DNA from: a virus
Virus record (IMG/VR): IMGVR_UViG_3300020200_000014
Span: 21,059 to 85,058 of that record
Direction: 5' to 3' (one strand)
Length of the DNA stretch: 64,000 nucleotides
Both the position numbers and the translations under genes were made by a program. The notes under the pieces are model-generated. The model searched no databases, had not been told where the DNA came from, and was given only the letters and a program-made list of their open reading frames with translations. This document shows, one piece after another, positions 20,658 to 64,000 of this stretch. Every line of letters begins with the position of its first letter. Within the stretch, counting starts at the first letter, position 1.

Positions 20658-21350
20658 ATGGAATATATCGACAAAGGAAATGGGAACCCGGTTGTATTAT
20701 TTAGCGGAACACCTTCAGGATCAGATCACATTTTACTCTTTGAAGGTCTTCTAGACAAGTTCAGAATTATTAGCCCTTCTAGACCTGGATATCTAGGAAC
20801 TCCCCTCAATGGTCCAAGCAGCATCACAGATCAAGCTTGGATGTTTTTCGATCTTCTAAATAAGCTAAACATCAACAAAACATCATTATTAGCTCATTCA
20901 GGTGGTGGACCATATGCCTTAGAATTTGTCAAACTATTTCCAGAAAAAGTAGACAAACTAATTCTTTGCTCTGCGTTAGTTAAGCCTGATAAAATTGGTT
21001 TGCTTTCTAGAATATTTTGGCAAAATTGGATTCTAAGATTAGGCGGATTCTTTGCCCCACAATATAAAGCTTATCTCCAATTACTCATGCCAAAAAGAAA
21101 ACGCATAGATGGCTTTAACAATGATGCATATAATTTCAAAAATATGCCAGTCTTTAATTTTAGCTCCATCAATTGCCCAACTCTAATACTTCATGACCTA
21201 AATGACAGCTTTGTTAAGTTTGAACAAGCACAACTAGCCAATCACATTCCAAAATCTATTCTAATGACATTTTCTGGGAACCATTTCTTAACAATTGGCC
21301 CAGATAAAGATGAAGTTTATGAGGCAATGGAAGGGTTTTTGGAGAAGTGA
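20658..21350 (+). CDS. Alpha/beta hydrolase
   Basis: SRPGY, AHSGGG nucleophile elbow, PTLILH...D and GNH catalytic positions. Confidence 0.85.
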   Translation: MEYIDKGNGNPVVLFSGTPSGSDHILLFEGLLDKFRIISPSRPGYLGTPLNGPSSITDQAWMFFDLLNKLNINKTSLLAHSGGGPYALEFVKLFPEKVDKLILCSALVKPDKIGLLSRIFWQNWILRLGGFFAPQYKAYLQLLMPKRKRIDGFNNDAYNFKNMPVFNFSSINCPTLILHDLNDSFVKFEQAQLANHIPKSILMTFSGNHFLTIGPDKDEVYEAMEGFLEK

Positions 21351-21475: not shown

Positions 21476-23123
21476 TGTATATCCACGTTTTCTTGCCACA
21501 ATCCCAAATGCGGCTAAAACCTCTTGCATTAGCCCATTGCACTTCTGTTAATTCTGGAGGGCAATTGGTTTTCTTCTTTTGTTGAGATTGTTTACTATAT
21601 CTTAATTTAGGTTTCTTTGTAGACACATAAGAATAATCTGCTTTTTCTTCTATTAGTAGCTCAAATCCTAGTTTTTTATATACATTACCTTGACTCCATC
21701 TATTATCACTCCAAGTTCTAATCTCTTCTTTATTATTATTATTAGCCCATTCTTTACAACGTTCAAACAACCTTGCCGCCCCTCCAACCACATTTATTCC
21801 TGATTTCACGCAAAATCTGTCTAAGGTTATTATGTCTAGGTATCCTCTATGATGTCTTCCTAATGACATGGCAGCAACAATTTCTTTTTTATACTCCAAA
21901 ACAAAAAACACGGACCCTAAGTTATTACCATATTGAATATGATTTTGATTACAAAATTCATTAAATATTTTTCTGTTTACTTGTTGAACTTTGCATTTTC
22001 TAGCATATATTGTTTCTGTGTTTTTGTTTAAAACAGATTGCAAAAATCCTTTGACTTGTTTATTTCTAAATTTCCATTCATCTTCAAATATAGTAATTAA
22101 TCTAATGCCTTTCTCTAAACATTTAATATATTTATCGTAATGATATTTTACATCTCTAGGTTGAGGAGAATCTTCATTGTGCCAAAAAAGCCCACAATAC
22201 TCTATTGCTACGTTTATTTTTGGATCATATAAATCAATTTCTTTTCCTTCCAACAACAAATAATCATTTTCAAAAGAAAAGCCCATAGAATTCAACCAAT
22301 CTTTCAATTCTTTTTCTGCTTTTCCATATTTTTGATTTTTTGTTAAACATAATGGATTAGGAACGCCTAACCTTTCCATACAAACATTTCTATAATTCAA
22401 TTTTGATTCATCTGTTTGAGAATAATAATCCTTGTCATACCTGGATTTCATTGTCTCTTTTGCCTTGGCTCTGTTTTCTGGCAATTGTGATTCATGCAAA
22501 ACGCCTTTTTCGTCAAGACATTTTTTTGTCCTGTTAGTCCAATATTCTTCGGTTTGAGTATAATTTCTTTTCCCAAATGTGCTTTCACAAGTATCTTCCC
22601 TTTTTTTCAAACTAACAGGATTTAACATCGGATGATCAAATCCAGAAGCCTCTTGATATCCATTTTTTTGCATTTCTTTAAAATCAGGATGTTGAGAAAT
22701 ATTTTTTACTCCCCACACTTTTTCGCAACTTTCTTGTTGTATAGTTCTTACTTCAGAAGACTGCATAGGATGGTCTACTCCCCAATTCTTACGAGAAGTT
22801 TTTTTTCTTTTTTCTTTATTATTTTTTGTTTGAGAATAATATTCCACTCCGTTTTCTTTTAAACATTTCTCCTTCATATCATCTTTAAACTTATTTGTTT
22901 TAAATATGTTTGTTTCGCCATGAAGAAGCAACGACACTTCTTCTTTTTTCTTTAGTTTACATTCTTTAGCTCCACAACTATCTTTTTGAATATGCTTATT
23001 GCATTTTTCTCTACTATGCTTTTGCCTTTGAAATTCCGCTCCACAATAATCACATTTAAACCAAACAATATCAACAAACCTAACTTTTTTGTAAGATTTG
23101 TCTAACTTTTCTTCAATAATCAT
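21459..23123 (-). CDS. Free-standing homing-type endonuclease (repeats + PD-(D/E)xK + GNAT-like C-terminus)
   Basis: K.GV..P.Q repeats; EIDLY...AIEYCGLFWH; YARKC, NHIQ, WSDNRWS.G..Y..LGF, RIWDCG. Confidence 0.8.
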   Translation of the reverse strand: MIIEEKLDKSYKKVRFVDIVWFKCDYCGAEFQRQKHSREKCNKHIQKDSCGAKECKLKKKEEVSLLLHGETNIFKTNKFKDDMKEKCLKENGVEYYSQTKNNKEKRKKTSRKNWGVDHPMQSSEVRTIQQESCEKVWGVKNISQHPDFKEMQKNGYQEASGFDHPMLNPVSLKKREDTCESTFGKRNYTQTEEYWTNRTKKCLDEKGVLHESQLPENRAKAKETMKSRYDKDYYSQTDESKLNYRNVCMERLGVPNPLCLTKNQKYGKAEKELKDWLNSMGFSFENDYLLLEGKEIDLYDPKINVAIEYCGLFWHNEDSPQPRDVKYHYDKYIKCLEKGIRLITIFEDEWKFRNKQVKGFLQSVLNKNTETIYARKCKVQQVNRKIFNEFCNQNHIQYGNNLGSVFFVLEYKKEIVAAMSLGRHHRGYLDIITLDRFCVKSGINVVGGAARLFERCKEWANNNNKEEIRTWSDNRWSQGNVYKKLGFELLIEEKADYSYVSTKKPKLRYSKQSQQKKKTNCPPELTEVQWANARGFSRIWDCGKKTWIYKIKEE

Positions 23124-56694: not shown

Positions 56695-57325
56695 AACTTT
56701 TACCTCTAAAATAAGCATCCCATATCTTATATTCTTCATTAAACCTATCGTAAAAATACAACTTGCATCCTGCTGGTGATTTCCTCATTATTTCAGGGAT
56801 TGATAACACTTTAATTTTTTGTTTATTATGATAAAATCCATTTTCCCATTGCAAAGAATAATCTAGTTTGTAATTCCATATGTTGCTTATCTCTTTTTTA
56901 TTATGACAAGAAGCCCAAATTGCAGAAATCGAATTAATTCCGCAATCAGACAAACAATTTACAGTCCCTTTTAAGAAATCAAAATAACACAAATCGAAAG
57001 CATAAAAATCATTTATAAAATCATTCCCAGAACAAATTTTACCTTTTGCTATTTCAAAAACGTCATCAATATTATCTTGAAAAAAAGCTCTATGACTCCA
57101 AATTGCCACAATACCATTTTTGCCTTCTAAAAAATCATATAAATTTTCAACAATATTTATATTTATTTTTTTTAAATGATTAACAATTTGCAGCGATAAT
57201 CCTTCATTTATTATCGCCACATCACCAGCAAATTTAATTTTGCTTAAAGAAGCAACCCAACATATTCCGTAATCATTCCATGTTTTTGAATTAAAACTTC
57301 CAATTACAATTTTGCTTCTTTGCAT
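56657..57325 (-). CDS. Hypothetical protein (degenerate glycosyltransferase-like)
   Basis: FFQDNI..F and WNY motifs; lies between gp47 and gp46. Confidence 0.5.
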   Translation of the reverse strand: MQRSKIVIGSFNSKTWNDYGICWVASLSKIKFAGDVAIINEGLSLQIVNHLKKININIVENLYDFLEGKNGIVAIWSHRAFFQDNIDDVFEIAKGKICSGNDFINDFYAFDLCYFDFLKGTVNCLSDCGINSISAIWASCHNKKEISNIWNYKLDYSLQWENGFYHNKQKIKVLSIPEIMRKSPAGCKLYFYDRFNEEYKIWDAYFRGKSFEKIKNKIFKGN

Positions 57326-58347
57326 ATATCTTTACCAATTTCTGATAAAACCTTTTTTTCTAAAGTAGTCTCAATTTGTTCAAGATAATTTTCAATCATT
57401 TCATCCTTGTTTGTTAAAATAGCTTTTGCATCTTTAACAATGTGATCAGAATCCTTTTTGGCAATTGGTACTATCTGCAAAGTCCCAGGCCCATGAGAAT
57501 GTAATTGATTTTTTAAATTAACAAGATCAACAGTACCTACATTAGAAGTTTGTATTTTTACGAAATTATTTTTTATTTCGTGATTATCGATATCATCATC
57601 TTTTATAACTAAATGTTTAGGACTTATAGTATTTTCAATATACTGCTTTTCCTTACTCTTAAAATCGAAAATAATTAAATGTTTTTTTTGAAAAGCTTCA
57701 CCAAAATCTAACTGTAATGGCGATCCAATATATTCAATGTTATCAGAGATTTGTTGCGGAGAATGATAATGACCCAAAAAAACATGCTTCCAATGAGAAA
57801 ATGAATCCTTAGAAACTTTTATCATCTCCCCATCATGCTCAACCACAACATCAGAAATTTGAGTCGCATTCAATTTAGCCCCATCAATAGCAATATGAGC
57901 AACCAAGATTTCTGATTCATTTTTTTTTAACTCTTCCATATGTTCAAGCGGATTATGAGTAAAAGGTAAGAAGTCCACCTTGTACCCATTGATGATATGT
58001 ACACTAGGTTTATCTACTACTATTACATTTTTAATAGCAGAAAGTGGCTTTAGACTGCTAATGTTCCATTTGTCGAAATACCAAAGATCATGATTGCCTA
58101 AAAGCAAATAGACATTGAACTTATTAGAATGAGCTTCAATAAGTTCAAAAGTCAAATGATATGCTAATACATCTATTTTTTCTCGATCATGAAATAAATC
58201 ACCACCGAAAATAATATCTCGAACCTTATGTTCTTCAGCTGTCTGATATACCCATTCAAGAACTTTCAGGCAATCATGTAATCTATTAACTGATTTTTTA
58301 TGTTGAGCGACATGTAAATCGCTAAAAATTAAAGTTTTAAATCCCAT
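57304..58347 (-). CDS. sbcD: Recombination nuclease gp47 / SbcD
   Basis: SDLH, GGDLFH, GNHD, LGHYH, YIGSP.Q.DFGE. Confidence 0.92.
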   Translation of the reverse strand: MGFKTLIFSDLHVAQHKKSVNRLHDCLKVLEWVYQTAEEHKVRDIIFGGDLFHDREKIDVLAYHLTFELIEAHSNKFNVYLLLGNHDLWYFDKWNISSLKPLSAIKNVIVVDKPSVHIINGYKVDFLPFTHNPLEHMEELKKNESEILVAHIAIDGAKLNATQISDVVVEHDGEMIKVSKDSFSHWKHVFLGHYHSPQQISDNIEYIGSPLQLDFGEAFQKKHLIIFDFKSKEKQYIENTISPKHLVIKDDDIDNHEIKNNFVKIQTSNVGTVDLVNLKNQLHSHGPGTLQIVPIAKKDSDHIVKDAKAILTNKDEMIENYLEQIETTLEKKVLSEIGKDICKEAKL

Positions 58348-58382
58348 TAGACTTAAAACTTTAACAATAATTTAAACTAAAG

Positions 58383-58685
58383 TCAATTCTTATTACCAAC
58401 AATCTTATCTAGGATGTCCCATATATCAGGAGTCTTCATCTTAAATACAGGTTGTTGAGGAGGAGCGCCGCCACCCATCGGAGGACCACCCATTCCACCC
58501 ATTGGAGGAGGAGGCCCACCACCGCCCATTGGAGGAGGCGGACCACCTATTCCACCCATTGGAGGAGGAGCGCCGCCGCCAAGAGGAGATGGACCACCAG
58601 GAAGACCAGCAGGAGAAGCAATTCCCCCAGGTCCGCCAGGCAAAGGTGCTTCCATTAATTCGTAAAATTCTCTAAATGTCTTCAC
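58383..58685 (-). CDS. Pro/Gly-rich low-complexity protein with capsid-targeting N-terminus
   Basis: MKTFREFYELME then PPPMGG repeats; TATAAATA at 58687-58694. Confidence 0.7.
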   Translation of the reverse strand: MKTFREFYELMEAPLPGGPGGIASPAGLPGGPSPLGGGAPPPMGGIGGPPPPMGGGGPPPPMGGMGGPPMGGGAPPQQPVFKMKTPDIWDILDKIVGNKN

Positions 58686-58730
58686 TTATTTATATATTGA
58701 TTTTTGCCACATTTCTGTTATATTGAGATA

Positions 58731-59264
58731 ATGAAGAAACTAAAATCAAAATCTCTGTCTATTTTTTTCCACAAATCAATTAGACATCTCCTGCCTTATC
58801 CTCCATCAATTGGAATTTTCGAACTAAATCATGTTGCTGATTACGAAAAGTGTCCAGATACATGGAAAAGAGATGGATTTTTTATTGGGATAAATGAAGA
58901 AGAAGCTCTTTTTTTTCATTTTGATACCCTAAACGAAATGGCAATTATAATCAACAAAGATGATAAAAATGCTCTAACTAACGAAAAAAGTAATTTGGTT
59001 TTAAAAGAAGGAAATCATCTTATATCGCCTCCAAAAAAAATACTTGATTTTTGGTTCGAATTTGACAAGGCCGGTCATCAATTTATTCCTCCAGCTAAAA
59101 TAGAAATCATTACATTTGAAACAAAAATAAGACCTCTTGATATATTTGAAATTTATTTAATTGATAAAAACCAATTCAAAGAAATAACAGATCAAGATTT
59201 ACCACCTATCGCAAAAGCAACTCAAGAATACATTACTACCTTAATGAATGGAACAAATAGCTAA
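58731..59264 (+). CDS. Hypothetical protein
   Basis: ORF from ATG 58731. Confidence 0.55.
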   Translation: MKKLKSKSLSIFFHKSIRHLLPYPPSIGIFELNHVADYEKCPDTWKRDGFFIGINEEEALFFHFDTLNEMAIIINKDDKNALTNEKSNLVLKEGNHLISPPKKILDFWFEFDKAGHQFIPPAKIEIITFETKIRPLDIFEIYLIDKNQFKEITDQDLPPIAKATQEYITTLMNGTNS

Positions 59265-60453
59265 ATTAGTTGATTATGCTCTTAAAGCTGAAAAATTAAA
59301 CATGAGAGAAGAAGCTTTAGATGCTTTTTTAGCTCTCAAAGAAATCTTCCCAACTTGTCCTCTTGTAAGAATAAAATTAGCTATTGCATATCTCTATACA
59401 AAGCAATTTAAAGAAGGACTAAAAGAACTTGAACACAGATTTGATCCACCTATAGAAAATGAAATAACCAAAATGCAAAGCTGGCCAGCCTTCATGGGAT
59501 CATCTGCAACTTTTAAAAATTTCTATCAAAAACCCCTATGGGATGGTAAAGAAGATATCAAAGACAAAACAATATTAGTCTTTGATGAAGCTGGATTTGG
59601 TGACTATATCCAATACATCAGATATCTTCCAAAACTTAAAGAAAAAGGCTGCAAAATAATTTTGGAAGTTAAACCAGAACTGTATGAATTATTCCAGAAC
59701 TTAGGTGTAGAAACCACACTTTGGAATAAAGAAGAAAAAATGAAAGCTTTTTTCTTTGCAATGACAAAAATTAAAGGTTATAAACCTCCATTACCACCCC
59801 ATGATTACGTCGCTTCTGTATTCTCTTTCCCCTATTATTTTGACCCTGACCTAAGTAAAATTCCATTAGAGCAATACCTTTTCCCAAAACAAAAAACAAA
59901 TTTAATTGAAAAATCAAATAAATTTAAAATTGGTTTGGTTTGGGCTGGAAATAGACAAGATAGCTGTGACCAAAACCGCTCTTGTTATCTAAAAAAGCTC
60001 GCTATTCTAGCAGAAATCCCAAATGTTCAACTTTTTAGTTTACAAAAAGGCGATACAAAACTACAATTAGATGTCAAAAACAATATGATTCGTAATTGGG
60101 AAATCAATGGAGAATTTGAATCTGTAAATCTCCTTGAAGGAACTGAAAATCTAAACTTAATTGATCTAGACGCTAAAATTAACGATTTTACCGACACAGC
60201 ACAAGCTATACAGGAATTAGACCTAATTATTTCAATCGATTCCGCCGTTATTCACCTAACCGGAGCATTGAATAAATCTGGATTCCTTATGCTGCCATTT
60301 ACACAACCAGATTGGAGATGGCAACTAAATTGGTATCCTTCCGTAAAAATATTCAGACAAAAATCTCATAATGATTGGGAAGGGTTAATTCAAGAAGTTA
60401 AAAAAGAAGTGGAATCGGAAATAAATTTCAAGAAATTCAAAAATTCACCTTGA
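59248..60453 (+). CDS. TPR + GT9-like glycosyltransferase
   Basis: W.G, E.GFGDYIQ..RY, IGLVWAGN, SLQKG, DF.DTA..I..LDLIISIDSAVIHL.GAL, DWRW. Confidence 0.85.
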   Translation: MEQIAKLVDYALKAEKLNMREEALDAFLALKEIFPTCPLVRIKLAIAYLYTKQFKEGLKELEHRFDPPIENEITKMQSWPAFMGSSATFKNFYQKPLWDGKEDIKDKTILVFDEAGFGDYIQYIRYLPKLKEKGCKIILEVKPELYELFQNLGVETTLWNKEEKMKAFFFAMTKIKGYKPPLPPHDYVASVFSFPYYFDPDLSKIPLEQYLFPKQKTNLIEKSNKFKIGLVWAGNRQDSCDQNRSCYLKKLAILAEIPNVQLFSLQKGDTKLQLDVKNNMIRNWEINGEFESVNLLEGTENLNLIDLDAKINDFTDTAQAIQELDLIISIDSAVIHLTGALNKSGFLMLPFTQPDWRWQLNWYPSVKIFRQKSHNDWEGLIQEVKKEVESEINFKKFKNSP

Positions 60454-60477
60454 AAATTTTGAATTGCTGCGTATGAT
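60450..60477 (+). promoter_or_regulatory. sigma70-type promoter for the tRNA operon
   Basis: TTGAAA-16bp-TATGAT. Confidence 0.6.
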
Positions 60478-60501
60478 AAATGTATCAGTAGGAAAAAATA
60501 A

Positions 60502-60567
60502 ATGAAATTTTTGTTTACAAGCCTGTTTTCACTCAGTTATTCGTTATCCAGCGGACACGAAGAATGA
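60502..60567 (+). CDS. Putative attenuator leader peptide MKFLFTSLFSLSYSLSSGHEE
   Basis: SD AGGA 8 nt upstream; 14 of codons 3-17 are F/L/S/Y. Confidence 0.75.
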   Translation: MKFLFTSLFSLSYSLSSGHEE

Positions 60568-60635
60568 CCGTTTAGGCTTGTACAGTAGAGGATCAGAAAA
60601 CCTCAGGAGCTTAAACGGGTTCCTGAGGTTTTTTT
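60516..60635 (+). promoter_or_regulatory. Transcription attenuator (1:2, 2:3 antiterminator, 3:4 terminator)
   Basis: tacaagcct (60516-24) pairs with aggcttgta (60574-82); ccgtttaggctt (60568-79) pairs with gagcttaaacgg (60607-18); terminator aaaacctcaggagc...gttcctgaggtttt plus U-run. Confidence 0.75.
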
Positions 60636-60663
60636 ATTTTAATTGTACCAAGAAAGGTAAAAA

Positions 60664-60978
60664 ATGCCAGTTTTAAGTGATTTTCCTTGGGTCAAACAAG
60701 AAGAAGGATACTTTGAAACAAAATCCGTCTTCAAAATGATCCCAGCCACAAATGACTTAGTTGCCGGTAAAAATTACAGAGTTAAACTTGAAGATGGACC
60801 TGAGTATATTGGAAAGTTCAAGACGTTCAGATACAGAAAGAAAACACATGATAGCCCTTCTGTAGCTGTATTCCTTGAATTTGAAATTGCCATAACAGGT
60901 GGAACTGGAAATGTAGTTATGGCAGAAGATAAAGTTAAAGAACTAAGACAAGTTGATGCCCCGATTGTATCAACTTAG
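60664..60978 (+). CDS. Hypothetical protein in the tRNA operon
   Basis: ORF with SD AAGG. Confidence 0.65.
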   Translation: MPVLSDFPWVKQEEGYFETKSVFKMIPATNDLVAGKNYRVKLEDGPEYIGKFKTFRYRKKTHDSPSVAVFLEFEIAITGGTGNVVMAEDKVKELRQVDAPIVST

Positions 60979-61005
60979 CTATTTGACAATTTGGATTAAT
61001 TATAT

Positions 61006-61097
61006 GGAGAGAATGGCAGCTATTGGCAGGCTGTACTAGTCTTGAAAACTAGCGTATATGAATAGTATACTGAGGATTCGATTTCCTTTTCTCTCCG
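61006..61097 (+). tRNA. tRNA-Ser(UGA)
   Basis: GGAGAGA/TCTCTCC acceptor; CTAGT-CTTGAAA-ACTAG; long variable arm; atypical D arm. Confidence 0.8.
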
Positions 61098-61105
61098 CTT
61101 AGTTC

Positions 61106-61176
61106 GCAACCTTAGTGTAAAGGTCGCACGTCACTCTGAAGAAGTGAAGGACACGTTTCGATTACGTGAGGTTGCA
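61106..61176 (+). tRNA. tRNA-Phe(GAA)
   Basis: GCAACCT/AGGTTGC; TCACT-CTGAAGA-AGTGA; TTCGA T-loop. Confidence 0.85.
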
Positions 61177-61181
61177 TTGTT

Positions 61182-61266
61182 GGAGCGATGGCAGAGTGGC
61201 TTATTGCACCAGTCTAGAAAACTGGAGTCCCGAAAGGGAACAATGGTTCAAATCCATTTCGCTCCT
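61182..61266 (+). tRNA. tRNA-Ser(AGA)
   Basis: GGAGCGA/TCGCTCC; CCAGT-CTAGAAA-ACTGG; variable arm TCCC-GAAA-GGGA. Confidence 0.85.
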
Positions 61267-61276
61267 TTAATATTAT

Positions 61277-61352
61277 GGCACCGTAGACCAACTGGTAGGA
61301 GTCGCCACGCTTAGAACGTGGATAGTGATGGGTTCGAATCCCTCCGGTGCTA
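61277..61352 (+). tRNA. tRNA-Leu(UAG), short variable loop
   Basis: GGCACCG/CGGTGCT; CCACG-CTTAGAA-CGTGG. Confidence 0.8.
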
Positions 61353-61374
61353 CTTTAATTGTACCAAGAAAACT

Positions 61375-61740
61375 ATGAAACATGATTTGAAAGTTTGGCT
61401 TGTTTTAGTCCCAGAAACCTTAAATGGCAAGAAAATAAATCGCAGTTACCATCGAGCTTGGGATAAAAAAGTTAGAGATATTACAAAAGGATTGACGATA
61501 CATTATACAGCCAAAGGTCAATGGATAAATCCTGAAGATGGAAAATTAACGTTGGAAGGCATGATACCTGTTCACATGGCCTGCACAGATGAACAGATCG
61601 AAATAATAACGGACATGACGGTAGAATATTACGAACAAAAAGTTATAATGTACTACCCAATCGCCAATAAAGTTTTTTTTAAAAAGCGAAAAACCAATGA
61701 AATGGATTCGTTGCGAAGTGACAAGAAAAGTTTGTCATGA
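61375..61740 (+). CDS. Hypothetical protein in the tRNA operon
   Basis: Start reassigned to ATG 61375 (MKHDLKVW) because the track start lies inside a tRNA. Confidence 0.65.
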   Translation: MKHDLKVWLVLVPETLNGKKINRSYHRAWDKKVRDITKGLTIHYTAKGQWINPEDGKLTLEGMIPVHMACTDEQIEIITDMTVEYYEQKVIMYYPIANKVFFKKRKTNEMDSLRSDKKSLS

Positions 61741-61933
61741 TTCAATGTGGCATGCTGCATGATCAATGAAAAGAACTGCAAAAATGACAAGTGAAGATGT
61801 AGGAGAATATAATATTTGGCGGTGCGAACATTGTGAATGCTGGCATATAGGACACAAAAATAAAAAGATAGAATTTAATGAAGGTTATTACAATCCATTC
61901 CAAATTGAGAAATTGTTGTATAGGAGAAAATGA
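61697..61933 (+). pseudogene. Small Cys/His protein with an in-frame TGA at 61760
   Basis: MKWIRCEVTRKVCHDSMWHAA*SMK...WRCEHCECWHIGH. Confidence 0.5.
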
Positions 61934-62023
61934 GGGGCAAAGGCGAATATTGGCTTCGTCGCAACACTTTGCTAAAGTGTCCCGGCTTAAAATCCGGTTT
62001 GAGTTCGATTCTCAATTGTCCCG
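61934..62023 (+). tRNA. tRNA-Ser(GCU)
   Basis: GGGGCAA/TTGTCCC; ACACT-TTGCTAA-AGTGT; long variable arm. Confidence 0.8.
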
Positions 62024-62034
62024 TTGGAGCAAAT

Positions 62035-62220
62035 ATGAAAATCAAAGAAATTAGAGAACTTGTTAAAAGATTTTCCAGAACTTTAGATGCCAATTGCGAA
62101 AAAGATGAATATGATTGGTGGGGCAGTGATAGAGCAATTTGGAATAATTTAGCAAATCAGTTCTTAAAATGGTGCGAAAAGAATAGGAAAGATATTGAGA
62201 AAGAGGTATATTCGTCGTAA
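62035..62220 (+). CDS. Hypothetical protein
   Basis: MKIKEIRELVKRF; SD GGAG. Confidence 0.55.
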   Translation: MKIKEIRELVKRFSRTLDANCEKDEYDWWGSDRAIWNNLANQFLKWCEKNRKDIEKEVYSS

Positions 62221-62223
62221 AAG

Positions 62224-62298
62224 GGCCTGGTATGCAAACTTGGCAAAGCAATCAAGCTCAAACCTTGATGAATATGGGTTCGAATCCCATCTGGGCCA
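62224..62298 (+). tRNA. tRNA-Leu(CAA), short variable loop
   Basis: GGCCTGG/CTGGGCC; TCAAG-CTCAAAC-CTTGA; ATGGG-TTCGAAT-CCCAT. Confidence 0.8.
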
Positions 62299-62299
62299 A

Positions 62300-62394
62300 A
62301 AAATCTCCTGTCCGTGAGGGCATGTGGGTTCGACTCCCACCAGCCGCATTGAACACTAAGCGGCTGTGGCGGAATTGGTATACGCTGGAGACTT
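62300..62394 (+). tRNA. Circularly permuted tRNA-Leu(UAA): 3' half 62300-62348, 11-nt linker, 5' half 62360-62394
   Basis: All stems reconstitute: GCGGCTG/CAGCCGC, Leu-type D arm, GGAGA/TCTCC, TGTCC-GTGA-GGGCA, GTGGG-TTCGACT-CCCAC. Confidence 0.8.
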
Positions 62395-62483
62395 GTGTGG
62401 TGTTCCTGACGGCGCTCTGTAAAAGCGTTGGCAACTAAACATGTCAGGTGGATGCCGAAGGGGTTCGATTCCCTCATCACGCA
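62395..62483 (+). tRNA. Atypical tRNA-Tyr(GUA)-like RNA lacking a D arm
   Basis: GTGTGGT/ATCACGC acceptor; GGCGCT-CTGTAAA-AGCGTT; T arm present; CCTGAC/GTCAGG long-range pairing. Confidence 0.6.
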
Positions 62484-62751
62484 TTTTTTATATAAGATTT
62501 TTTCTAGAAACCTTACTTTGGGTGTGTTTTGTGAAAAAAGCAAAGGTTTTATTGGCATAAGGGAAAAATTTGGGTATAGATATTTAGATCAAGAATATCA
62601 TTGGGATCAAGGTCCTCCTCATGGTACAGCTAGCCCAAAAGAATTATTGGAAGAATGCCCATTGGGATTAGACCATAACAGCAAAGAACTATTTGAGTGG
62701 TTAGATCAACATGAAAAAAATACAAACAAGCAAGATTTGGACGCTATTTGA
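62484..62751 (+). CDS. Hypothetical phage protein, probably 5'-truncated
   Basis: SRNL..GVF, FIGIREKFG..YL..EYHWD.G.P.GT; track start overlaps the tRNA-like RNA. Confidence 0.4.
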
Positions 62752-62908
62752 CGATGATAGTGTTAAAAAGAAGTTGAAAGTTATGGATAAATGGGATGCG
62801 ATGATGGATGATAGTCGCAACCCTGAATGTGACATTGCTGAACAGGTTGAAAAATTCTTGGAATTAGGGAAGAGTTATCGAGTTACAATATCATTTGAAG
62901 AAGTTTAA
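62711..62908 (+). CDS. Hypothetical protein
   Basis: ORF track. Confidence 0.5.
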   Translation: MKKIQTSKIWTLFDDDSVKKKLKVMDKWDAMMDDSRNPECDIAEQVEKFLELGKSYRVTISFEEV

Positions 62909-63013
62909 TCAACACATACTGCCAATGCTAAATAAAAATTCATTTGAAATTGTAGATTCTTTACCAATAAACTTTACAGGAAAAATCCCAAATTTTCTTA
63001 AAGTTTATCCATA

Positions 63014-63118
63014 GGCGGCGGGAAAACCTCTACATCGAAGATGCTGGCTTGCGTCGGAAGTGAGCGAAGCGAACGACCAGAGCAAGCCAGCCCTTTAGGG
63101 TAGAGGATGAGAGCCGCC
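63014..63118. repeat. Nested palindromic element resembling an IS200/IS605 end or MITE
   Basis: ggcggc/gccgcc, cctctac/gtagagg and gctggcttgc/gcaagccagc stems; shares ccctttagggtag with the IS end at 46812. Confidence 0.6.
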
Positions 63119-63119
63119 T

Positions 63120-63383
63120 TTAGTGTGAATGACTAATGGTTACATCTGGTTCGACCTGAGTAACACTTGCACCGCTCAAAGATGCCTCTCCCTCTTTTCC
63201 CTCTTCCCTTTCATACAACTTGAACAACGTGTTCTGATAGTTACCATCAGGATTAAGGTCTTGGTAATGCCGCATCCCAAGATGTGTCTCCATATATTCA
63301 CGCAACCGAGACACCGCTTCGCTCTCGTCAGAAGCAACAGGACCATTGACGCCAGCAATGGTAGCGATAAATTTTACGCTCAT
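63120..63383 (-). CDS. Hypothetical protein
   Basis: ORF with SD AAGGAG; higher GC. Confidence 0.6.
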   Translation of the reverse strand: MSVKFIATIAGVNGPVASDESEAVSRLREYMETHLGMRHYQDLNPDGNYQNTLFKLYEREEGKEGEASLSGASVTQVEPDVTISHSH

Positions 63384-63802
63384 GCCATATCTCCTTCATT
63401 GTCCATGACGACGTGCAGGTGCTTGGTATATTTCCCGCCGTGTACCACATCATTGAACCATATGATGCACGACGAAGATTTTTCTCCACCTGCTACCTGT
63501 GCCAGACAAGACAACAACGAACTTAGACCCGCTCGGTTTAAGGTAATCAAAGCATTGTCGTTACTTCCAGGTGGTTGCGAAGGGCTAAGGTAAATTTTAG
63601 GGTTCTGACTGACTTCCTTATGAATATATTCAATATCGACACCATCAATTCTATACTCACAAAACTGATATGAAGTCCAAACAAACAACTTGTAGTCAGT
63701 TGGGTCTTTGTCAAAACCAACACTAATCTTACTAATACTTCGTCCAAGATACTTCTCGGACAAAAAATTCTTCACTTTAGTTGCTTGCTCTAATGTAGCC
63801 AT
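63380..63802 (-). CDS. Hypothetical protein
   Basis: Start reassigned to MATLEQ with SD AGGAG. Confidence 0.55.
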   Translation of the reverse strand: MATLEQATKVKNFLSEKYLGRSISKISVGFDKDPTDYKLFVWTSYQFCEYRIDGVDIEYIHKEVSQNPKIYLSPSQPPGSNDNALITLNRAGLSSLLSCLAQVAGGEKSSSCIIWFNDVVHGGKYTKHLHVVMDNEGDMA

Positions 63803-63983
63803 CTTCTTCGCTCCTCTCTTCTTTTTTAATGAAAACATGCCGTGACAATTTGCCCGCATATTTGTTCCACGCTTCTACAATCTCAAAAGGAGATGCAGTT
63901 TTGTGACGTAAATAAAAGTCCAAGAACTTAGTATAGTCAGATTGAGACAATTCAGCCAAGTCTATATGGTATATGTTTTTCAT
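63777..63983 (-). CDS. Hypothetical protein
   Basis: ORF track. Confidence 0.5.
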   Translation of the reverse strand: MKNIYHIDLAELSQSDYTKFLDFYLRHKTASPFEIVEAWNKYAGKLSRHVFIKKEERSEEDGYIRASN

Positions 63984-64000
63984 TGTTAGTTCGTTTCCTG

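Follow-up and report, generated by a model that had tools for sequence, protein, structure and literature searches.

A probable leader-peptide attenuator ahead of codon-matched tRNA genes in a clade of huge phages

A 64,000-nucleotide (nt) stretch of viral DNA, positions 21,059 to 85,058 of the IMG/VR record IMGVR_UViG_3300020200_000014 and referred to here as the window, carries an array of tRNA genes that is preceded by a short leader unit consisting of a promoter, a small open reading frame (ORF) and an intrinsic terminator. Judging from the sequence data, we put the chances at roughly three in four that transcription of a phage tRNA operon is gated here by a ribosome-mediated attenuator of the leader-peptide type, and the tRNAs would then probably be made only when ribosomes decode the matching codons slowly. 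The anatomy of the unit is conserved in 18 complete distinct leaders from related phages, the leader codons match the anticodons of the arrays, and these codons are more varied than codon usage predicts.

The leader unit and its occurrence across the clade

The leader unit lies on the plus strand, as do all features of the array described below. It opens with a sigma-70-like promoter (60450..60477; -35 element 60450-60455, 16-nt spacer, -10 element 60472-60477) that agrees with the consensus at 10/12 positions. This is followed by a Shine-Dalgarno (SD)-like AGGA(A) at 60490..60494, its AGGA standing 8 nt upstream of the ATG, and by a leader ORF of 21 codons with an ATG start (60502..60567), as given in the program-made ORF list. 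Codons 3-17 of this ORF specify Phe, Leu, Ser or Tyr in 14 of 15 cases, with five different Ser and four different Leu codons among them. An intrinsic terminator (60595..60641) comes next, composed of an 18-pair hairpin (60595-60634) and a run of seven U (60629-60635). The original prediction, made from the letters of the window, had named the promoter, the SD, the 21-codon ORF with these codons and a terminator with a U-run, and had likened the whole to the attenuators of the trp, his and leu type; all of these elements are confirmed in the sequence, and the short ORF with its SD, the related codon run and the intrinsic terminator of that layout are in place. Note that the promoter and terminator matches of the window prove nothing on their own, because the scan totals do not exceed those of shuffled sequences (23 vs 18.9 promoters and 4 vs 4.2 terminators).

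Relatives were reached through a neighbouring gene that encodes an SbcD-like nuclease (window 57304-58347). The window SbcD is 51% identical to that of LR756511.1, a 595-kb uncultured phage, and an alignment of the two led to huge-phage contigs, from which the best 80 of 160 matches (41-51% identity) were kept. The 82 sources scanned are the window and 81 loci, namely LR756511.1 and 80 IMG/VR loci. An array stands beside SbcD in 19 of the 82, and a complete 527-kb genome (G004), whose array lies just outside the fetched locus, adds one. That a leader should precede homologous arrays had been fixed beforehand as a point on which the prediction could fail: a short frame with 13-15 Phe, Leu, Ser or Tyr codons out of 15 heads 19/19 arrays, 73-1293 nt 5' of the first tRNA, and the array of the 527-kb genome is likewise headed by a leader-terminator unit. 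The runner-up frame within the same 1.6 kb reaches 6-11 such codons out of 15. Among the loci, L006 duplicates L005, L024 duplicates L023 and L004 is cut by a contig end; the 18 complete distinct leaders are the 17 analysed here plus that of the 527-kb genome.

The start codon of the leader ORF is conserved in 18/18 complete leaders, the automatic choice of start being uncertain in L011, L054 and L077. All of the 17 leaders have a sigma-70-like site (8-11 of 12 positions) 24-90 nt upstream of the start codon, and SD-like purine-rich words stand ahead of the chosen start in most relatives. The tRNAs of most relatives lie directly 3' of the terminator with no intervening ORF, and the genes upstream of the leader differ between loci. 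In LR756511.1, the order is SbcD, a Pro/Gly-rich protein and a conserved ORF, then a promoter, a 5' hairpin, an SD, a short ORF rich in Ser, Leu and Tyr codons and a 17-pair terminator, directly 3' of which stand eleven tRNAs, every one of them Ser, Leu or Tyr.

Frames with at least 13 Phe, Leu, Ser or Tyr codons out of 15 are not rare in themselves, about 120 being present in the six frames of 1.34 Mb, ten of them in the 85-kb genome from which the window is taken. A signature of the unit was defined as such a frame whose stop comes no more than 15 codons later and which has a strong terminator no more than 45 nt away. This combination occurs in 18 of 119 Phe/Leu/Ser/Tyr-rich frames; 18/18 head arrays, and none lies in an array-less locus. 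In L011, the nineteenth locus with an array, the U-tail is weaker, and the locus did not pass the signature filter.

Leader codons match the tRNAs of the array

The array tRNAs downstream of 16 distinct leaders (155/155) are restricted to Phe, Leu, Ser and Tyr, plus Cys in one array; elsewhere, about 60 tRNAs of every kind are present in whole genomes of the clade. In bacteria, a long variable arm is the mark of the Ser, Leu and Tyr tRNAs. The limitation of the block to Ser, Leu, Tyr and Phe points to a possible selective pressure acting on these tRNAs.

The expected co-variation of leader codons with array anticodons is borne out. Under standard wobble, the leader of the respective array contains a cognate codon for 153 of the 155 tRNAs, against a mean of 65 and a maximum of 88 in the controls, which were same-length segments of long ORFs from the same locus. 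At codon level, in a 2x2 table of the 18 Phe, Leu, Ser, Tyr and Cys codons, those that the array can decode are present in the leader in 149/197 cases vs 37/91 for the others (odds ratio 4.5, p = 1.5e-8), where it has to be held against our reading that p-values such as this one overstate independence because the leaders are related. The match extends to the exceptional arrays: in L020, the sole array with a tRNA-Cys, the leader run includes two Cys codons, and in L031, the sole array without a tRNA-Leu, the leader consists of ten Ser, three Tyr and one Leu codon.

The leaders also use more synonymous codons than their loci would predict. The window leader has nine distinct Ser and Leu codons vs 6.26 expected in a simulation from the codon usage of its own locus (p = 0.014). 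Across the family, the count is 144 vs 117.5 expected on the same basis, and the highest value among 5000 simulations was 132; L017, nearly identical to L015, was omitted from this count. If each subgroup is represented by a single leader, the figures are 95 vs 78.2. With so many synonymous codons in the run, what it samples is probably the individual isoacceptors, not the amino acids.

Folding of the leader transcript

Three segments of the window leader can be assigned to competing helices. Region 1 (60515..60524) lies within leader codons 5-8 and would be the partner of region 2 if no ribosome is present; region 2 (60568..60583) begins immediately 3' of the stop codon and could pair with either region 1 or region 3; region 3 (60607..60618), at the top of the terminator 5' arm and its loop, is the candidate antiterminator partner of region 2. 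The predicted minimum free energy (MFE) of 60484-60640 is -47.7 kcal/mol (z = -4.79), and none of 200 shuffles was equally stable. The MFE fold includes the terminator and a 1:2 helix (about 60515-60524 with 60574-60583), as originally claimed. Codons 2-13 and the post-stop box form 16 base pairs (bp), compared with 5.6 in shuffles.

When the first half of the ORF was masked as a model of a stalled ribosome, the nascent RNA adopted the 2:3 helix (about 60568-60579 with 60607-60618). In the same kind of model, the pairing probability of the terminator 5' arm is 0.90 with a stalled ribosome, 0.54 without a ribosome and 0.52 with the ribosome at the stop codon. A cmscan search of 60300-62700 against Rfam (E <= 1) found no T-box or other cis-regulatory leader within 60450-60640.

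Across the family, a terminator hairpin is present in 17/17 leaders, with energies of -12.5 to -39 kcal/mol and starts 20-33 nt after the stop codon, and 8/11 consensus pairs of its stem show compensatory changes (RNAalifold on a MAFFT alignment of the 17 leaders). The segment ahead of the terminator is more stable than shuffles in 17/17 leaders (z < 0), with a mean z of -2.7, and the pairing of codons 2-13 with the 22 nt 3' of the stop adds up to 194 bp, where shuffles average 84.8 and reach at most 155. The stalled-ribosome folds have the final, G-rich codons of the ORF pairing, together with the post-stop box, to the terminator 5' arm, which would explain the conserved Gly/Glu/Arg-rich tails of the leader peptides. 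The antiterminator clearly beats shuffles in L015, L017, L023, L031, L050 and L072, and does so marginally in the window. In these models, the terminator and the leader fold have good support, that for the antiterminator being partial.

The tRNA array of the window

ARAGORN finds six tRNAs in the array, of which the Rfam tRNA model lists four. In order, they are tRNA-Ser(UGA) at 61006..61098, tRNA-Phe(GAA) at 61106..61176, tRNA-Ser(AGA) at 61182..61266, tRNA-Leu(UAG) at 61277..61353 (77 nt, with a short variable arm), tRNA-Ser(GCU) at 61934..62023 and tRNA-Leu(CAA) at 62224..62298 (75 nt). Those also listed by Rfam are Phe(GAA), Ser(AGA), Leu(UAG) and Leu(CAA). The tRNA-Ser(AGA) has an A at the wobble position, and relatives carry GGA there. 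Both tRNA-Leu, at 77 and 75 nt, are short in the variable arm, unlike the Leu tRNAs of relatives, which are 82-87 nt long.

A seventh gene is permuted. The 3' half of a tRNA-Leu(UAA), from anticodon base 35 to the discriminator base, occupies 62300..62348, and the 5' half, from base 1 to wobble base 34, follows at 62360..62394. Joined by script, the halves form a canonical tRNA of 84 nt that ARAGORN accepts at its default threshold, and they pass only once joined. The arrangement is unchanged in contigs of other lake samples. The 3' half lies directly 3' of tRNA-Leu(CAA) and the 5' half directly 5' of the next tRNA-like element; because the halves abut their neighbours in this way, ordinary end-processing would release both pieces, whose junction would fall between bases 34 and 35 of the anticodon loop. 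As for an enzyme that might seal them, a Pfam search of the 85-kb fragment (17% of the genome) gave no match to an RNA ligase of the RtcB, Rnl1 or Rnl2 type, and the Rnl1 model matched no control genome either.

The last member (62395..62489) is a weak, tRNA-like element, not a canonical tRNA, with a GUA anticodon loop (62395-62483) and then a U-run that may mark the end of the operon. It has a good acceptor stem, a T arm and the GUA anticodon loop but lacks a normal D arm; ARAGORN at its default setting missed it, and the Rfam tRNA-Sec model scores it at 24.2 bits vs a cut-off of 47. The arrays of relatives hold ordinary tRNA-Tyr genes. Of the eight Ser, Phe, Leu and Tyr genes originally proposed, six are hence tRNAs by ARAGORN and the permuted Leu(UAA) is real as two halves, but the Tyr(GUA) gene is merely tRNA-like.

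Between the terminator and the first tRNA lie a 104-amino-acid (aa) ORF (60664..60978) and a 13-nt conserved box containing TTGACA (60982..60994). The ORF product has no Pfam or PHROG match; one relative of it is known, 74% identical and encoded on a marine survey contig of 1334 bases, and tblastn with the 104-aa protein gave no relative. An 18-nt direct repeat (60637-60654 and 61353-61370) stands just ahead of the ORF starts at 60664 and 61375, and its 11-nt core also occurs 24 nt 3' of the L005 terminator.

The TTGACA box has ten matches in about 1.45 Mb, all of them within these arrays. It stands 14-18 nt before the first tRNA in the window (for which 24 nt is also given), L003, L005, L007, L009 and L021. 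The box is listed for the window, L003, L005, L007, L009, L019-L021, L031, L050, L054, L072, L077 and L086. Its hexamer is a perfect -35-like element, and by eye there is no -10 element at 16-18 nt. The box could be an internal promoter, the promoter of another polymerase, a processing site or a protein site.

Genomic neighbourhood

The source record is an 85-kb IMG/VR contig with 33.6% G+C that CheckV rates as 17% complete; the window is a fragment of a huge phage, and its DNA is present in lake-water metagenomes. Contigs of four lake-water runs have identical letters in the leader and so gave no micro-diversity there. A Pro/Gly-repeat protein of about 100-118 aa without a family match adjoins SbcD (window 58383-58685, minus strand; L003 11606-11962), and its position is conserved in LR756511.1. 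DNA searches of the phage collection with the leader and with 57000-64000 returned nothing or tRNA matches only, and protein scans of viral and metagenome contigs (with a 401-aa protein, the 104-aa protein and SbcD singly, and with alignment A1) returned no relative. No RNA data set is listed as containing 59800-62600.

Discussion

The elements described above suggest the following sequence of events. Host RNA polymerase would start at the promoter at 60450-60477, and a ribosome would translate the 21-codon leader. If the Phe, Leu, Ser and Tyr codons are read fast, the ribosome would reach the stop codon and cover the post-stop box, so that the terminator at 60595-60635 forms and transcription ends. 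Should the leader not be translated, the post-stop box would pair with the early part of the ORF, and the terminator would form as well. If, on the other hand, a matching tRNA is scarce, the ribosome would stall in the codon run and leave the post-stop box free to pair with the terminator 5' arm while the 3' arm is still to be transcribed; polymerase would then read through into the 104-aa ORF and the Ser, Phe, Leu and Tyr tRNA genes. The new tRNAs would relieve the stall and thereby close a feedback loop on decoding speed. Candidate causes of tRNA depletion are a host nuclease, a phage-induced shut-off or a mismatch in codon usage. Translation of the leader, the direction of the switch with its stall-driven read-through and the physiological trigger are what we infer from these sequences.

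A number of observations speak against this interpretation. The 12-bp 2:3 antiterminator of the original prediction does form in the stalled-ribosome fold of the window, but as a duplex it is marginal against shuffles (z = -1.6, with 8% of shuffles as good). It is no better than shuffles in L003, L005, L007, L009 and L019 and weak in several further leaders, the mean z across the family being -1.0. A swap of helix partners between leaders was uninformative as a control: the cognate partner ranked first in 2/17 cases per helix, and cognates were not singled out. In L015, L017, L023, L050 and L072, the pairing-probability model has the terminator arm sequestered even without a ribosome. The compensatory changes expected in the helices are found in the terminator stem, but RNAalifold on the alignment of the 17 leaders recovered nothing beyond it.

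The codon match has gaps as well: 47 of 250 Phe, Leu, Ser, Tyr and Cys codons of the leaders are without a cognate tRNA found in the same locus stretch, and the leaders of L003, L005, L007, L009, L011 and L023 contain Phe codons with no tRNA-Phe in the stretch available. In the window, the codons CTC and ACA (Thr) have no array tRNA, and the six canonical tRNAs leave CTC, TAT and TTA unread; the two non-canonical elements would cover TAT and TTA. Protein ORFs sit between the terminator and the tRNAs of the window and would be under the same control. The TTGACA box, for its part, could allow the array to be transcribed by another polymerase independently of the leader. Finally, the other tRNA regions of LR756511.1 (215-300 kb), searched for a short ORF ending no more than 48 nt upstream of a strong terminator, yielded two candidates; by eye, codon matching was seen in neither, and we count this as a complication. 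In the locus L085 (LR756511.1 262000-300000, reverse), a short frame ends 23 nt before a strong terminator (22238-22267 of the reversed locus), 415 nt upstream of a mixed array of about 25 tRNAs, and by eye it was not judged codon-matched.

Other explanations of the unit have to be weighed against the same data. The idea of a chance ORF beside the ordinary terminator of an upstream gene draws on the abundance of Phe/Leu/Ser/Tyr-rich frames in AT-rich DNA and on promoter and terminator scans that by themselves do not exceed shuffles, but it is contradicted by the comparative data, as the unit heads 19/19 arrays, is absent from array-less loci and has different upstream genes in different loci; we regard it as hardly credible. 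Conservation of the ORF and its start codon in all complete leaders would also be expected if the ORF had nothing to do with tRNA control and, equipped with its own terminator, encoded a small Ser/Leu-rich peptide that is functional in itself. This is very improbable to our minds, for it is the composition that is kept and neither sequence nor length, the synonymous codons are more varied than genome usage predicts, the ORF always heads an array of matching tRNAs, and its G-rich 3' end doubles as RNA structure. The TTGACA box, with its restriction to these arrays and its place shortly before the first tRNA in the window and five loci, could instead mean that the array is transcribed mainly from internal promoters, be they the box itself or phage-polymerase promoters, and that the leader and terminator control the first ORF only or insulate the array from upstream transcription. 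The missing -10 element after the box and the direct succession of terminator and tRNAs in most relatives, with no ORF between them to be controlled, make this improbable, and an insulator would not need a codon-matched ORF.

A different question is what the attenuator, if it is one, responds to. The switch might operate as described but sense starvation for amino acids or the overall capacity for translation (uncharged tRNA, host shut-off, antibiotics) and not the loss of particular tRNAs to host nucleases, the Ser, Leu, Tyr and Phe make-up of the arrays reflecting their origin, for instance by duplication of tRNAs with a long variable arm. Common descent could indeed explain the grouping, since Ser, Leu and Tyr share that feature, and the stress-induced tRNA array of Anabaena considered below is a further point for it; however, the excess of synonymous codons and the codon-level match to the anticodons point to individual tRNA species, and extra tRNA is no cure for amino-acid starvation, which leaves this version rather unlikely. 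A bolder reading, to which we give somewhat less than even odds, is that the leader is a gauge of the tRNA pool at the resolution of isoacceptors, in which each synonymous Ser, Leu, Phe or Tyr codon would probe one tRNA species and the loss of any of them would open the whole array. The loss might come from a host tRNA-cutting defence with a preference for tRNAs with long variable arms or from shut-off of the host by the phage, and the unit beside SbcD would then constitute, across the clade, a self-limiting circuit for replacement on demand.

Leader-peptide attenuators are well known from enterobacteria, where those of thr, ilvGMEDA and ilvBN are multivalent and others control trp, his, leu and pheA. 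The phage unit shares with them the promoter-proximal short ORF, a run of regulatory codons for more than one amino acid, predicted alternative 1:2, 2:3 and 3:4 helices and the terminator before the structural genes, but it is viral, would control tRNAs instead of biosynthetic enzymes and would probe many synonymous codons. As the controlled genes are tRNAs, their product would act directly on the sensor. Closer in its target is the pheST attenuator with its pheM leader, where leader-peptide attenuation also governs a gene of the translation apparatus and the signal is the charging of tRNA-Phe; that system, however, is cellular, controls a synthetase gene and senses a single amino acid. T-box riboswitches likewise read the status of tRNA through a terminator and an antiterminator, but they bind uncharged tRNA directly and need no translation, and the window leader has no T-box match, as mentioned. 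The mechanism proposed here is of a known kind, and what would be new is its target, tRNA genes, and the multi-codon design.

For the target itself, the trn operon of Anabaena offers a parallel: it is a silent array of 26 tRNAs that is induced by translational stress (PMC8421152, PMC10272220), and thus an accessory tRNA array that is off until translation is impaired. Control there is exerted by the repressor TrcR (PMC10272220), and the terms attenuat-, leader and terminator are absent from PMC8421152. A Phe-rich leader ahead of the E. coli tRNA-Phe genes was considered as a precedent and dropped; in the pheV region of MG1655, the promoter stands immediately upstream of the tRNA, with neither an ORF nor a terminator of that type. 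In the literature searched, no published account of leader-peptide attenuation of tRNA genes was found.

It has long been asked why phages carry tRNA genes. Current studies suggest that phage tRNAs replace those destroyed by host defences (PMC10264068, PMC11464382). A human Schlafen is reported to cut type II tRNAs (cited in PMC13056530), and the bacterial Schlafen studied in that paper cut other tRNAs. If our reading of the leader is true, at least some phage tRNA sets would be expressed on demand, not constitutively, with the speed of decoding as the signal. Classical attenuation would be extended to a new class of targets, tRNA genes, whose product feeds back on the sensor, and the leader would represent a compact natural sensor of individual tRNA species.

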